DNA of 61,852 nt from assembly GCA_041946735.1 (NCBI GenBank), contig JBHGAY010000030.1, forward strand, positions 1-61,852, written 5' to 3'. Every line of letters starts with the position of its first letter. Within the stretch, counting starts at the first letter, position 1. Origin of the DNA: Candidatus Eiseniibacteriota bacterium (lineage in GTDB: Bacteria > Eisenbacteria > RBG-16-71-46 > CAIMUX01 > VGJL01). The notes under the pieces were generated by a model that was not told the origin of the DNA, searched no databases, and saw nothing but the letters and a program-made list of their open reading frames with translations. The position numbers were made by a program, and so were the translations under genes. Of the stretch, positions 30,963 through 35,722 are shown in pieces.

Positions 30963-32189
30963 ATGACCAGCGAGGCGGAGGGACCTCGCCGCGAGGTTCT
31001 CGAGCGGCGGGAGGCGATGATCGAGCTCCGGCGCGCGATTCACCAGCAACCGGAGCTAGGCATGAAGGAGGAGAGCACCGCCCGCGCGATCCTCGAGATC
31101 TTGAAGCCGGCGTTCCCGCAGGTCCGCGGCTCGGTGGGCGGGACCGGCGTGACCGCCCTGCTGTCCTCGCCCGGCAGCTCGTCGTCTCGCGCGATCCTCT
31201 TGCGAGCCGACATGGACGCGCTCCCGATCCAGGAGGAGACCGCAGCGCCCTACGCCTCGCGGCAGCCCGGCGTGATGCACGCATGCGGCCACGACGGCCA
31301 CGTCGCGATCCTCGCGCAGACCGCCCTCGTCGCCGCCGGCCCGATGGCGAAGCGCTTGCGCCATCCGGTCCGTTTCGTCTTCCAACCGGCGGAGGAAGGG
31401 CCGGGCGGCGCGTTGCCGATGATCCGGGCGGGCGTCCTCTCCGATCCGCCTGTCGAAGCCGCCTTTGGCCTGCACCTGTGGAGCGGCCTCCCTGCGGGAG
31501 TCGTGGCAGTCACCTCCGGGCCGATGATGGCCTCGGCCGACGAGTTCGAGCTGCGGATCGTCGGGCGCGGCGGGCACGGCGCCTCTCCGCACGAGACGGT
31601 CGACGCGGTCGTCGTCGCGAGCCACCTCGTCACCGCGCTCCAGACGCTCGTGTCGCGCAACGTCGACCCGATGCAGACAGCGGTCGTGACCGTCGGGATG
31701 CTCCACGCCGGCGACAACTTCAACATCATCGCGGAGACTGCGAGGCTCCGCGGCACGATCCGCTCGTTCCGCTCGGACGTCCGCGACCTCTTGATCCGGC
31801 GCCTGCGCGAGACGGCGGAGGGAATCTCGGCGACCTTCGGAGCGCGTTGCGAGTTCGTCTTCACCGAACATTACCCGCCGACGGTGAACGATCCGCGAAT
31901 GGCCGACTTCGTCGCGGACGTCGCCGCCGAGGTCGTCGGCCGGGAGAACGTCGTGCGAGATCTGGTCTCGATGGGCGCGGAGGACATGAGCTTCTTCCTG
32001 CAGGAGGTGCCGGGGGCCTACTTCTTCCTCGGCGCCCGGAACGAGTCGAAGGGGATCGTCCACCCGCATCACAGCCCTCACTTCGACATCGACGAAGAGG
32101 CGATGCCGATCGGCGCGGAGATCTTCCTGCGGATCTTGGAGCGCTATCCCGACGCGTTCCCCGAGCCGCCCGGCAAGCCGCGGCGGTAG
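30963..32189 (+). CDS. M20D family amidohydrolase
   Basis: LRADMDALP, MHACGHDGH, FQPAEEG, GRGGHGA, AEDM, HHSPHFD. Confidence 0.93.
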   Translation: MTSEAEGPRREVLERREAMIELRRAIHQQPELGMKEESTARAILEILKPAFPQVRGSVGGTGVTALLSSPGSSSSRAILLRADMDALPIQEETAAPYASRQPGVMHACGHDGHVAILAQTALVAAGPMAKRLRHPVRFVFQPAEEGPGGALPMIRAGVLSDPPVEAAFGLHLWSGLPAGVVAVTSGPMMASADEFELRIVGRGGHGASPHETVDAVVVASHLVTALQTLVSRNVDPMQTAVVTVGMLHAGDNFNIIAETARLRGTIRSFRSDVRDLLIRRLRETAEGISATFGARCEFVFTEHYPPTVNDPRMADFVADVAAEVVGRENVVRDLVSMGAEDMSFFLQEVPGAYFFLGARNESKGIVHPHHSPHFDIDEEAMPIGAEIFLRILERYPDAFPEPPGKPRR

Positions 32190-32229
32190 GGGCGGACGGC
32201 GGGCGCGCGGGCCGGCGGTGGCGTCATCG

Positions 32230-32754
32230 ATGCTCCTCATTCTCGTACGGCATGCGCACGCGAACTCCGCTGCGCCGGGCGAGGACGACGCTTCGCGCTC
32301 GCTATCCGAAGCCGGAGAGCGAGAGGCGGCTGCTGTTGCGGAGAGGCTGCGCGAGGCTCTGGAGGATCTCGGCTCCACCCCTCCGGGGATCCTCGCGAGC
32401 CCGAAGCGGCGCGCGATGGAGACGGCGCGGATCTTGGCGCGGGTGTTGGGGACCGCCGAACCGGCGGAGCACGCGGCCCTCGCGTCGTCCAACGATCCGG
32501 CGCGGCTCTTCGCCGCGCTGCCGGCGCCGCCGAATCCCGCCGCGCGCGGCCGCCAGCCGGCGATCCTGCTGGTCGGTCACGAGCCGGACATGGGACGGGC
32601 GCTCGCTTACCTGCTCGATCCGACCTGGCACGGGGCGATCCCGCTTCGGACCGCCGGCTTCGCGATCGTGGAGACCGAAGCGGTGCCGCCGAACCGGCCG
32701 GGCCGGCTCCGCCGATTCGGGGATGCGGGGAACGGCGCGTTCGCGAGCGGTTGA
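32230..32754 (+). CDS. SixA-like phosphohistidine phosphatase
   Basis: LVRHA, RSL, SPKRRAMETA, LVGHEP. Confidence 0.85.
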   Translation: MLLILVRHAHANSAAPGEDDASRSLSEAGEREAAAVAERLREALEDLGSTPPGILASPKRRAMETARILARVLGTAEPAEHAALASSNDPARLFAALPAPPNPAARGRQPAILLVGHEPDMGRALAYLLDPTWHGAIPLRTAGFAIVETEAVPPNRPGRLRRFGDAGNGAFASG

Positions 32755-32783: not shown

Positions 32784-33362
32784 TCAGTCTTGCTGCAGGA
32801 TCTCGCGCACCCAGCCGTCCAGAGCGGCTCGCGTCTGCACCTCGAGCAGGCTCGGACCCGGTTGTACCGTGTGGAGGCGCTTGTACTCCCGCCCCTCCTC
32901 GTCGAGGAGGACGAGATCGTCTTTGATGAGATCGTGGCGCTCGGCCACCTTCTCGAACTCATCGTCCTGGAGAATCGGAATCGTAAAGCCCTGATGGATG
33001 GCGTCGATGTTGTCGGCGTTGCGCGTGTTCAGGAACAGGGGCTGGACGGCGAGACCTTCCGTCTGCCAACCGATCGCAAGCAAGCCGAGAGCAGCGAACT
33101 GCTGCTGGCAGAAGCCTCACCCTCCTTCGCCGACGAGCACGACGACGGCTTTGCCGCGGAATGTCTCGATCGCCAGCCGCTCGCCGTAGGTGACCGAGGA
33201 AGGATTCACGTCCTCGAGCACGAAGCTCCAGCCCGAGTCGCCCGGATTGCTCGACTTGTCGTCGCCGCAGGACGCGGCGAATCCTGCCAGAAGGAGGGCC
33301 AGCAGCATCGCGGCCGCCGGCCGGCCCGCATGCCGCAAATCCGCGATTCGCTCGAACGTCAT
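32784..33362 (-). CDS. Thioredoxin-fold lipoprotein selenoprotein (UxxC), selenoprotein P N-domain-like
   Basis: ORFs 33117-33602 and 32784-33083 are in the same frame, joined across TGA 33117-33119: RGKAVVVLVGEGG-U-GFCQQQ. Lipobox-like LLLAGFAASC. Start 33362 (alternative 33308). Confidence 0.82.
33084..33109 (-). promoter_or_regulatory. Putative bacterial SECIS hairpin
   Basis: GCC-AGCAGC-AGTTC-GCTGCT-CTC-GGC; the loop starts after 16 nt downstream of the TGA and has G at its second position. Confidence 0.6.
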
Positions 33363-33600
33363 TGTCGCGCCTTTCCCGGCGGAGTTCGGCCGCCCGAGCA
33401 TCCGCCGCACCGAGTCCGGCAGCGAGGATATCCCAACCGGCCCCGGGCGCAAACGTCTTGCGCCGTGCCCGCCGCGGGCTTGTACGCTTCTGGCTCCGGC
33501 CGGCCAAGGACACGCGAGGCGGGCGAGAGACGGGGCCACGCGAGGCCGGGCGAGGTGTCGCGGGGCGAACGGACACAGGAGAAAGGAAGGCGCGAAGGAC

Positions 33601-34155
33601 ATGCTCTCGAAGGAACGGGCGGTGCTGCTGGTCGTCGACGTGCAGGGGCGGCTGTTGCCGTCGATTCATGACGCCGACGCGACGGTTTCCGCGATCACGC
33701 GCCTGGTGCGCGGCTTCGGGATCGCCGGAGCGCCCGTCGTGGTGACGGAGCAGTACCGCAAGGGTCTGGGTGAGACGGATCCTCGGATCCAGGAGGCGGT
33801 CCGCGAGGTGAGCGGCGGCTCCTTCGATCCGTACGAGAAGATGTCCTTCTCGTGCTGCCGCGACGAGACGTTCCGCGCCGCGATCGAGGCGCTCCGCCGG
33901 TCGCAGGTCGTCCTCTGTGGGATCGAATCGCACGTCTGCGTGCACCAGACCGCCCTCGATCTGCTCGGGGCGGGCTACGAGGTGCAGATCGCGGCGGACG
34001 CCGTGTCGTCCCGCTCGCCCCGCAACCGCGAGATCGCGCTCCAGAGGCTCGCTTCGGAGGGAGCGAAGCTGACGACGGTGGAAACGGCGGTCTTCGAGAT
34101 GCTCGAGGTGTGCGGGACGGACGCCTTCCGGGCCTGGTCGCGCCTGATCCGGTAG
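33601..34155 (+). CDS. Isochorismatase-family cysteine hydrolase
   Basis: LVVDVQGRL, TEQYRKGLG, KMSFSC, GIESHVCVHQT. Confidence 0.92.
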   Translation: MLSKERAVLLVVDVQGRLLPSIHDADATVSAITRLVRGFGIAGAPVVVTEQYRKGLGETDPRIQEAVREVSGGSFDPYEKMSFSCCRDETFRAAIEALRRSQVVLCGIESHVCVHQTALDLLGAGYEVQIAADAVSSRSPRNREIALQRLASEGAKLTTVETAVFEMLEVCGTDAFRAWSRLIR

Positions 34156-34156
34156 G

Positions 34157-35722
34157 CTAGGCCGTCCCTCCTTCCCCGAAGACGTCTTGCCGGGTCTGAT
34201 CGAAGAGGTCCTTGCCGCAGGCGAGCAGGAGCAGGCTCGGGGCGCTCTCCCGCGCGAGGTCGAGGACGTGGCCGATCAGGCGCCGGATGTCCCACTGCGC
34301 ATGGCTGTCCAGGCGCAGGCGCGCCACGTGGTAGAGCTCGCGCGCGTTGACGGTCCACAGGACCCGGCGGCGATGCGCGTTGAGCAGCAGGTACGGCGCC
34401 GCCTCGGCCGTCCCGCTCTCCAGCACGCGGGCGTGCAGCCTTTCCGCCTCCGCTCGAAGCTCCTCGAAGGGGCCATCGAGCCCTGTCGCCACGAACGACG
34501 GCGGGATGGTCACGCCGAGCGACACGTCGTAGTCCTGAGCGGTGAGGGTCGTCATTCGGTGGCGCTTGAGCTGCGCGAAGCAGGCGGCGGACGGCACGAG
34601 CTCGAACGTGAGCGCGGCGACCTCGAACTCGCGTGGCACCGGATCGTGGGGCGAGATCTCCTTCAGAAGATCGCGGAGCAGCTCCTCACGCCCGTTCGCG
34701 CCCAGGGCGGCCGCACGCTCGCGGCATGCCGCCGCGTCCCCGTGCCCATAGCTATGGAGGAGCGCCGCTACGACGAGCAGATCGGCATCCGGTGGCGCGG
34801 CGACGAGCACGGCCTCGGCGACCGGTCCTGCCGCTGAGGCGGCGGACGGCCGGGCGAGCGCCGCCGTCTGCTGGCCCCACCGCCTGGCGGCGGCGGCGCT
34901 GCGCGAGCGGGAGAAGGCCGGCGCCGTGTGCTTGACGATCGAGGGGGCGATCTCTCCGATCGAGGCGTGGAGCTTGCGCGAGAAATCCCGAAGCTCGGAG
35001 AGCGGGTGAGCCGCCGTGCGCGCGATCAAGCGCTCGAGACTCCGCGCGTTCCACGTCGCTCCCATCTGGACGGTCGTCGCGAGCGACAGGCCGTAGCGGG
35101 CGTCCTCCTTCGCGAGTCCCTCGAGAGTGCGCCGGTGCTTCTTCGATCCGGCGATCTCGGGATGGCGTTCGAGGACCCAGGGGAGCAGCGTCTCGTAGGC
35201 GGACCGGTAGAAGGCGTTCTGCCGCGCGATCGCCTCGCGCATCTCCTTCTCGAGGCCGAGCGCGACGATCTCCTCGGGGATCACGAACTCCTCCTCGAGC
35301 AGGATGTAGCGCTGCGACTTCTCCGTGTAGGAGCCGAGGCGCGTGCGCTGCACCTCCTCGACGGCGAGCCTCGAGATGCCGAGGATGTCGAGGTTGAAGA
35401 CGGCGTGCTCCGCGACCGAGGCGTGCCCGAAGCCGAAGATGATCGTCTCGTTGGAGCGGCGGGCCGCCTCGACCTCCTCGCGAGCCGCCGCGCGCAGCTC
35501 GTGGACGGCGCGCGGGTCGCGGCTGATTCGCGCGTAGGCGGCGGAGAGGGTCTCGGGGGTCCAGTTGTCCTTCTCGAGGAGGGCGGCGGCTTCGACGCGC
35601 GCCTCGTCCGCCTCCGCCGACAGTCCCGCCGGCAGATCGCGGACTCTCGCGAGCGCCCGCCGGATCTCGAGCAGCAGATCCCGATCGAGATTGTGTCCGG
35701 CGAGACGGATTTCGAGCGCCAT
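34157..35722 (-). CDS. thyX: FAD-dependent thymidylate synthase, tandem-domain type
   Basis: GHASVAEH, SYTEKSQRY, EDARY, and a second domain with QLKRHRM and HAQWDIR. Confidence 0.88.
   Translation of the reverse strand: MALEIRLAGHNLDRDLLLEIRRALARVRDLPAGLSAEADEARVEAAALLEKDNWTPETLSAAYARISRDPRAVHELRAAAREEVEAARRSNETIIFGFGHASVAEHAVFNLDILGISRLAVEEVQRTRLGSYTEKSQRYILLEEEFVIPEEIVALGLEKEMREAIARQNAFYRSAYETLLPWVLERHPEIAGSKKHRRTLEGLAKEDARYGLSLATTVQMGATWNARSLERLIARTAAHPLSELRDFSRKLHASIGEIAPSIVKHTAPAFSRSRSAAAARRWGQQTAALARPSAASAAGPVAEAVLVAAPPDADLLVVAALLHSYGHGDAAACRERAAALGANGREELLRDLLKEISPHDPVPREFEVAALTFELVPSAACFAQLKRHRMTTLTAQDYDVSLGVTIPPSFVATGLDGPFEELRAEAERLHARVLESGTAEAAPYLLLNAHRRRVLWTVNARELYHVARLRLDSHAQWDIRRLIGHVLDLARESAPSLLLLACGKDLFDQTRQDVFGEGGTA

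Follow-up and report, generated by a model that had tools for sequence, protein, structure and literature searches.

An unannotated selenoprotein gene of a Candidatus Eiseniibacteriota bacterium, predicted to encode a divergent TUGYCR-type lipoprotein with an indirect likeness to selenoprotein P

We describe a gene in a 61,852-nucleotide (nt) stretch of DNA from a Candidatus Eiseniibacteriota bacterium (contig JBHGAY010000030.1, assembly GCA_041946735.1; the whole stretch is called the window below). The gene lies at 32787..33362 on the minus strand and, judged from its sequence and that of its relatives, is a genuine unannotated selenoprotein gene, whose product would be a divergent member of a known curated family. 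It is highly likely that this protein (the query) is a membrane-anchored, exported thioredoxin-fold oxidoreductase with selenocysteine (Sec, U) as the first residue of a U-x-x-C motif. It would form part of a divergent branch of the TUGYCR family (NCBIfam NF053656) that we find here only in Candidatus Eisenbacteria-type genomes. A likeness to animal selenoprotein P (SELENOP), proposed earlier from the sequence alone, is partly supported by the comparisons below: it appears real but indirect.

The in-frame TGA codon and its hairpin

The coding sequence is a single frame of 192 codons (33362..32787, minus strand, as for all features of this gene given below) that starts with an ATG at 33360-33362 and is followed by the terminal stop TGA at 32784-32786, just beyond the coding range. 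Translated with TGA read as U or C, the frame has one internal TGA only, at 33117-33119, which corresponds to residue U82. The list of open reading frames (ORFs) splits this frame into two minus-strand ORFs, one at 33117..33602, which ends at the TGA, and one at 32784..33083. Public protein sets also store the halves as separate ORFs, P0004 and P0005, the second of which begins at the same ATG. Homologues align over residues 1-192, and their alignments span both halves of the joined frame. The sequence-only reading had proposed that the two ORFs are one frame joined by the TGA, and this proves correct: every string that it quoted is found in the translation, which includes the lipobox Cys32, FRGKAVVVLVGEGG-U82-GFCQQQFAAL, FLN, IPILQDD and KDDLVLLDEEGR. 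Because the alignments of homologues run through both halves, the TGA column is U or C in relatives and the TGA is kept in all seven members of the query's own clade, we do not regard the join as a chance one.

Four independent lines of evidence indicate that the TGA is a selenocysteine codon: Sec/Cys pairing, a selenocysteine insertion sequence (SECIS) element, the Sec machinery of the genome and the pattern of half ORFs in public databases. The first line comes from the redox column itself (33117..33119, first residue of the U-G-F-C motif). Of 20 related frames from the own genome and 19 related genomes, 14 have U in this column and 6 have C, always within U/C-x-x-C. All seven clade members have U there, and Cys homologues have C in the same column. 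The putative resolving residue of the motif, Cys85 (33108..33110), is invariant in 70 aligned homologues. The sequence-only reading had tied its selenoprotein call to Cys/Sec conservation at the TGA column, and the column is U or C across the family.

The same pattern is found on a larger scale. A protein search of 61 genomes (the own genome and 60 related ones) gave a match at E<=0.001 in 34, and 28 of the 40 places listed from this search have exactly one in-frame TGA. Based on a profile of the clade run over 206 genomes of the phylum at E<=1e-10, 46 genomes are matched at 59 places, 45 of which have one in-frame TGA; in these counts the position of the TGA within the frame was checked in aligned frames only.

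As for the machinery, the 4.89-megabase (Mb) genome encodes SelA, SelB, SelD and tRNA-Sec. Its selD gene (G000:C2:108941-109867, L066; 388 bits) has one in-frame TGA of its own, and SelD of this genome is probably also a selenoprotein. Finally, six more database matches (P0048, P0051, P0075, P0054, P0069 and P0117) are fragments of half the length, which either stop at query residue 80-81 or begin only at residue 88. From their end points, these fragments look like miscalled selenoproteins.

The TGA is followed by a hairpin of the bacterial SECIS type (33090..33106), with a stem of 6 base pairs (bp), AGCAGC/GCUGCU, and an apical loop, AGUUC, that begins 16 nt after the UGA. Each of the 7 clade members has such a stem of 6 bp, capped by an AGUUY loop, after its UGA, and RNAalifold finds exactly this helix unprompted. 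For the set of seven sequences, 97.6% of the cells are paired compared to at most 61.9% in slid controls, with compensatory changes in three of the six pairs; the covariation score of this seven-sequence test is reached by 0 of 500 shuffles. The helix also occupies these columns in 19 genes of the TUGYCR type. With all 26 Sec-containing sequences (7 from the clade and 19 of TUGYCR type), 96.8% of the cells are paired and compensatory changes are found in five of the six pairs (47 cells), slid controls reaching at most 52.6%.

The hairpin can also be compared with a published model. As given in section 5 of a 2026 review (PMC13188914), a bacterial SECIS has a loop of 3-9 nt, a stem of 4-16 bp, a spacing of 16-37 nt from the UGA, an energy <= -7.5 kcal/mol and a G at loop position 1 or 2 that precedes G or U. 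The query hairpin agrees with the model as stated in that section of PMC13188914, with a loop of 5 nt, 6 bp, a spacing of 16 nt, -9.0 kcal/mol and a loop that starts with A-G-U (G at loop position 2, then U). A scan against Rfam at E<=1 gave one chance match to a small RNA only. The selenoprotein call is accordingly borne out by the Sec/Cys pairs, the covarying hairpin and the Sec machinery.

A further observation concerns the protein sequence that overlaps the hairpin. A Gln-Phe pair 6 and 7 residues past the Sec is invariant in 26 of 26 aligned Sec forms, and its codons, CAG-UUY, coincide with the SECIS loop. Since the pair is invariant in Sec forms but variable at the same positions in Cys forms (QM, EM, QY, NL and QW), the aligned sequences suggest that the RNA hairpin constrains the protein sequence at this place.

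Protein features and relation to the TUGYCR family

The N-terminus reads as a signal peptide with a lipobox (residues 1-32, ...LLLAGFAAS-C32; 33267..33362). By inspection of the sequence, basic residues are followed by a hydrophobic stretch and then by A-A-S-C32, and Cys32 is the predicted lipid-attachment site. At least 90% of the 70 aligned homologues keep this Cys. Upstream of the redox site lies the family signature D-x-N/Q-P-x-S, here D51-V-N-P-S-S56 (33195..33212), a motif present in all clades aligned; over the 70 sequences S56 is invariant and D51 is found in at least 90%. The motif P-x-L-Q-D, in the query I128-P-I-L-Q-D133 (32964..32981), is common to the whole family, with P129, Q132 and D133 in at least 90% of the 70 sequences.

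The motif table also places K147-D-D149 (32916..32924) at the proline column of generic TlpA/ResA-type proteins. Based on 35 aligned rows (3 generic TlpA-like rows and 32 others), this column holds P[ST] in 3 of 3 generic TlpA-like rows and P in 0 of the 32 other rows. KDD is found in the query clade and in rows that match SelP_N (PF04592), the Pfam model of the selenoprotein P N-terminal domain, and [YW]RD is found in TUGYCR rows. The proline at that column of the TlpA-like rows, before the last central strand, is the one which we take to be the cis-proline of thioredoxin folds.

For the fold, an AlphaFold2 model built with the 70-homologue alignment has a mean predicted local distance difference test (pLDDT) score of 85.6, with low confidence in the signal peptide and the linker. 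The top Foldseek matches of this model in the PDB are ResA (3c73_A, E 3.9e-9), DsbE/TlpA-like proteins including the DsbE-like 3gl3, Sco1 and the pneumococcal surface lipoprotein Etrx2, with a Foldseek probability of 1.00 and a template modelling score normalised to the target of up to 0.81. A family-profile search of PDB sequences has Etrx (2yp6), ResA and TlpA among the matches listed, and the PDB copy searched holds no structure of this branch. We are confident that the predicted fold is that of a TlpA/ResA-like thioredoxin. A Sco-like copper chaperone, raised by the Sco1 match, was rejected on the motif, which is U-x-x-C and not C-x-x-x-C. The earlier description of the protein as a lipoprotein and a redoxin finds support, more tentatively for the first term, in the lipobox Cys32 read from the sequence and the conserved Cys column, for the second in the predicted thioredoxin fold and its ResA/TlpA-type structural matches.

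The group of known oxidoreductases that this fold recalls, TlpA, ResA, CcmG (DsbE) and Etrx (the cd02966 group), is like the query in fold, presumed membrane tethering and position of the redox motif. It differs in having Cys where the query has Sec and, in 3 of 3 generic rows, proline (P[ST]) where the query has KDD. Sequence scores between this group and the query side are weak (15.5 bits for AhpC-TSA; 108 in hhalign). On the query itself, Pfam gives only AhpC-TSA (E 0.017, 15.5 bits compared to a cut-off of 26) and GSHPx (E 0.079), both below threshold, and no Redoxin match.

The best curated match is NF053656, redoxin_TUGYCR ('TUGYCR motif thioredoxin fold (seleno)protein'), with E 2.9e-16 and 59.7 bits in hmmscan and 52.3 bits in a six-frame search. 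The query is not above the curated cut-off of 100 bits of this family; its closest Cys relative, P0006, scores 104.8 bits and is above it. As in the query, NF053656 proteins combine a predicted lipoprotein signal, D-V-N-P-x-S, P-x-L-Q-D and Sec as the first residue of U-x-x-C with a 6-bp hairpin with an AGUUY loop in identical columns after the UGA. The family is also the best profile-profile partner of the query (hhalign 220, the highest of six groups). It differs in the redox motif, T-U-G-Y-C-R, in place of which the query carries G-U-G-F-C-Q with just U, G and C kept, and before the last strand, where it has [YW]RD compared to KDD. The same SECIS hairpin and the flanking motifs argue, at the level of sequence, for shared descent with the TUGYCR family. 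Because the Sec codon and the hairpin are common to both branches, they were most likely inherited together.

A full TUGYCR selenoprotein paralogue is encoded in the own genome (G000:C30:35886-36323, L003; 196.7 bits, one TGA) and is 28% identical to the query. With both genes, the organism is predicted to have two Sec lipoproteins of the superfamily.

The query clade is small in the data searched. Its profile finds 7 places in 7 of the 206 phylum genomes at more than 150 bits, and its members are 30-44% identical to the query. Searching one genome per prokaryotic species with a DNA pattern that spans the TGA returned 11 stretches, and clade members are encoded in 5 of them (four under the title Candidatus Eisenbacteria, one under 'uncultured bacterium'); the pattern detects only genes that keep the exact motif, and the clade may be wider. 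The other six stretches are chance matches with no blastp match to the query at 1e-3.

To place the clade we use a tree (IQ-TREE, quick search) of 107 rows chosen by hand (33 locus frames, 42 SelP_N-positive proteins, 12 labelled generic and 20 others), without multi-domain and fragment matches and rooted on the three generic TlpA-like rows. Four of the seven clade members, the query among them, group with P0006 (98) and the other three with one another (100); the two groups are not joined. In hhalign, the profile of the first of these groups scores highest against TUGYCR (220), followed by a Cys-only group (202), the SelP_N-positive group (186), the group of the other three clade members (184), the 'KWY' group (155) and generic TlpA (108).

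Some relatives have unusual architectures. For example, L049 (G015:C15:79235-82795) is one long frame with at least four tandem copies of the redoxin domain and the start of another. Only its first copy has Sec (A-T-U-P-T-C), and later copies are degenerate (e.g. A-T-Q-T-R-D and A-T-D-x-A-C). Further matches lie at 78947-81295 of the same contig, G015:C15, on which the clade profile has five matches in all, two with TGA and three without. Another relative, L025:871-1965 (G008), is a 365-residue lipoprotein with a long N-terminal extension before the redoxin domain of this family. This domain carries S-T-U-P-S-C, is without the Q-F-G of TUGYCR and keeps the hairpin columns.

Taken together with the fold, these features lead us to propose the following scheme. 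SelB with Sec-tRNA would read UGA82, aided by the hairpin. The protein would leave the cytoplasm, receive a lipid at Cys32 and stay anchored on the outer face of the cytoplasmic membrane. There U82 and C85 may cycle between a selenol/thiol and a selenenylsulfide form, the site presumably being kept reduced via a membrane electron carrier of the DsbD/CcdA kind. A DsbD-type membrane electron carrier (DsbD_TM) is encoded elsewhere in the genome, on contig C12. The cycle would serve to reduce some extracytoplasmic substrate, such as disulfides, or possibly peroxides or sulfoxides.

Several points weigh against this picture of an exported TUGYCR-type selenoprotein reductase. The query is under every curated cut-off (NF053656, 59.7 of 100 bits; AhpC-TSA, 15.5 of 26 bits). 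The lipobox has Ala at -3, and was assigned by reading the sequence. Given the column without proline, the chemistry may differ from that of TlpA and ResA. The 16-nt spacing of the hairpin is the lower limit of the SECIS model as set out in PMC13188914. Folding of the 76 nt downstream of the UGA is no stronger than that of shuffled sequences (z 0.22), so that the case for the SECIS rests on conservation and covariation and not on energy. Finally, no gene neighbour is conserved across the seven clade loci, and for this reason the substrate and the electron donor named above are guesses.

The selenoprotein P question and other readings

The sequence-only reading had likened the query to the N-terminal domain of animal selenoprotein P and proposed a comparison of SelP_N with AhpC-TSA profiles. 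For the protein itself, the link fails in this comparison by the refuting condition which that reading had set: the query matches AhpC-TSA and GSHPx only, with no SelP_N match at E<=10 (the gathering cut-off is 23.2 bits). A six-frame search of the own genome with SelP_N gives nothing at E<=1, and that of the 206 phylum genomes gives nothing at E<=0.001, the control genomes being silent as well. Among 10 relatives from related genomes, AhpC-TSA is matched by all and SelP_N by only two (E 0.29 and 0.31). Homologue searches with P0120, with a 35-row SelP_N-positive alignment and, at E<=10, with residues 85-180 of P0012 gave 3, 4 and 7 matches, all of them metagenome-derived (JGI, ENA, Logan and metaclust) and none named selenoprotein P. 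Neither does a search of PDB sequences yield a selenoprotein P chain, with the family profile (best 60 of 287 matches) or with the SelP_N-positive profile (25 matches).

The result is different for the wider family. When 1.84 billion representatives were searched exhaustively with phmmer, 122 matches were obtained at E<=0.001, 114 of which were scanned against Pfam after exclusion of the query's own two halves and the six fragments. Of these 114 homologues, 56 (10 of 16 plus 46 of 98) score above the SelP_N cut-off of 23.2 bits, at up to 61.3 bits, and 43 of the 56 score higher with SelP_N than with any other family. The matches span model positions ~7-125, i.e. the whole redox domain. At the looser threshold of E<=1, SelP_N is found in 48 of the 70 aligned homologues. 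The model is selective: it is matched at E<=1e-5 by 0 of 10 homologues that score more than 70 bits on AhpC-TSA, and no control genome rises above the cut-off. The SelP_N-positive proteins are prokaryote-type lipoproteins with CxxC and have the source name 'thiol-disulfide isomerase/thioredoxin'; one of them lies on a 4.6-Mb contig. Their best NCBIfam match is NF053656 at 55-70 bits, as for the query. They also share with the query U/CxxC at the same position of the fold, P-x-L/F-Q-D and KDD-x-x-x-x-D-x-x-G, and all rows examined have Cys at the redox position compared to Sec in the query.

The selenoprotein P likeness accordingly stands at the level of the wider family, through the 56 of 114 homologues that pass SelP_N, the hhalign score of 186 compared to 108 and the shared IPxLQD and KDDxxxxD motifs, and falls as a statement of membership for this protein. 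On the sequence comparisons, we read it as reflecting membership of a wider proline-less TlpA-like branch, which also holds the bacterial proteins that pass SelP_N.

How far this likeness extends is a matter of how the branch is drawn. On one view, TUGYCR-type Sec lipoproteins, the query clade and the SelP_N-positive lipoproteins are a single branch that is nearer to the SELENOP N-domain than ordinary TlpA/ResA proteins are. The number of homologues that match SelP_N, the selectivity of the model towards AhpC-TSA-strong proteins and control genomes, the hhalign score of 186 with the SelP_N-positive group compared to 108 with generic TlpA, the common NF053656 match and the shared P-x-L-Q-D and KDD columns all argue for it. 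The silence of SelP_N on the query and in all 206 phylum genomes and the weak matches in just 2 of 10 related-genome relatives, all 10 of which match AhpC-TSA, argue against it. So does the tree, in which the SelP_N-positive rows form one clade (SH-aLRT, the Shimodaira-Hasegawa-like approximate likelihood ratio test, 99) that excludes the query. The other half of the tree has weak support (86) and holds the query along with TUGYCR genes, the Cys-only lipoprotein group and the Cys homologue P0006. Moreover, the animal link comes from the Pfam model alone, since the comparisons used bacterial SelP_N-positive proteins, and the motif match to human SELENOP is a proposed one. We give the single-branch view an even chance of being right. 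A bolder version, which we offer tentatively and would not ourselves bet on, is that this proline-less branch of Sec TUGYCR-type and Cys SelP_N-positive lipoproteins may be the prokaryotic stem group of the SelP N-terminal domain.

The main functional rival to a disulfide reductase is a peroxidase or other non-disulfide reductase of the peroxiredoxin or glutathione peroxidase (GPx) kind. Peroxidase activity is reported for the SELENOP N-domain. The weak Pfam matches of the query, AhpC-TSA and GSHPx, would fit such a role, as would the clade member in G002 (L027:1516-2073), which has a peroxiredoxin gene on the same strand (L027:871-1479 (+), AhpC-TSA 145.9 bits) that ends 36 nt upstream. This peroxiredoxin neighbour is found at only one of the seven loci, however, and the best structural matches are reductases of the ResA/TlpA type. 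The U-x-x-C motif with its invariant second Cys is also thioredoxin-type and not the T-x-x-U or U-x-x-T of Sec peroxiredoxins and GPx as tabulated in PMC13188914. We consider a peroxidase unlikely.

Far less likely is that the query is a SelP_N member in the strict sense, a bacterial selenoprotein P. The UxxC at the same place in the thioredoxin fold and the homologues that match the model (48 of 70 at E<=1; 56 of 114 above the cut-off) speak for it, but the model does not match the query itself, which lies outside the SelP_N-positive clade. Animal selenoprotein P is a secreted plasma protein. It has a Sec-rich C-terminal part; the query is without a His-rich or Sec-rich one and ends after its 192-residue redox domain, is a predicted membrane lipoprotein and has a bacterial SECIS in frame, inside its coding sequence.

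That the frame is a pseudogene, or a pair of small genes with a true stop between them, as the two ORFs of the gene callers and the separate halves of public sets would have it, deserves hardly any credence and is already contradicted by the conservation data: the TGA stays in the same column in 7 of 7 clade species despite 30-44% protein identity and is also retained in 19 aligned TUGYCR-type genes, the downstream half is in frame and conserved, the hairpin covaries and the Sec machinery is encoded.

Genomic neighbourhood and significance

The selenoprotein gene stands alone between convergent and divergent neighbours. On one side lie an M20 peptidase gene (30963-32186, +) and a histidine phosphatase gene (32218-32751, +), on the other an isochorismatase-family gene (33601-34152, +) and a two-domain ThyX gene (34160-35722, -). 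The M20 and isochorismatase neighbours recur in same-family genomes only; elsewhere in the clade the neighbouring genes encode citrate synthase together with a MobA-like protein, a protein kinase, or DinB together with a tetratricopeptide repeat (TPR) protein. Nothing promoter-like emerged from a scan for promoters and terminators, which gave a single terminator-like site, on the opposite strand, a yield that does not exceed that of shuffled sequences. The ThyX protein has 521 residues with two matched Thy1 stretches (207 bits) and looks like a tandem fusion; single-domain ThyX is about half this length.

In the literature, the SelP N-domain was described in 2008 as 'distantly related to bacterial thiol oxidoreductases', with TlpA and ResA named, in the portion of PMC2397514 available. 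In the literature searched we found nothing beyond that paper on bacterial relatives of SelP_N, judged by listing, and no mention of 'TUGYCR'. The review PMC13188914, in the parts accessible, lists UxxC TlpA-like and Prx-like selenoproteins (Prx, peroxiredoxin) with a thioredoxin fold, from Sec/Cys alignment and SECIS; SelP is not in its count of families that eukaryotes have as well. The words 'NF053656', 'TUGYCR' and 'selenoprotein P' are absent as whole words from the text of PMC13188914 available, so that the branch described here and its SelP_N neighbourhood are unnamed there, in a comparison made by name.

For annotation, these results mean that the gene and its relatives, split into two 'hypothetical' ORFs in public sets, are to be merged as one selenoprotein each. 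They add a distinct branch, with GGUxFC and KDD, to the curated TUGYCR family. This family adjoins bacterial proteins recognised by SelP_N, and KDD replaces the usual thioredoxin-fold proline in both the new branch and those proteins, a link that is modest but testable. If the tentative stem-group proposal were true, the UxxC domain of an animal selenium-transport protein would descend from bacterial cell-surface redox lipoproteins that already used Sec at that position. The genes described here give a concrete prokaryotic sequence set with which the origin of the selenoprotein P redox domain may be tested.

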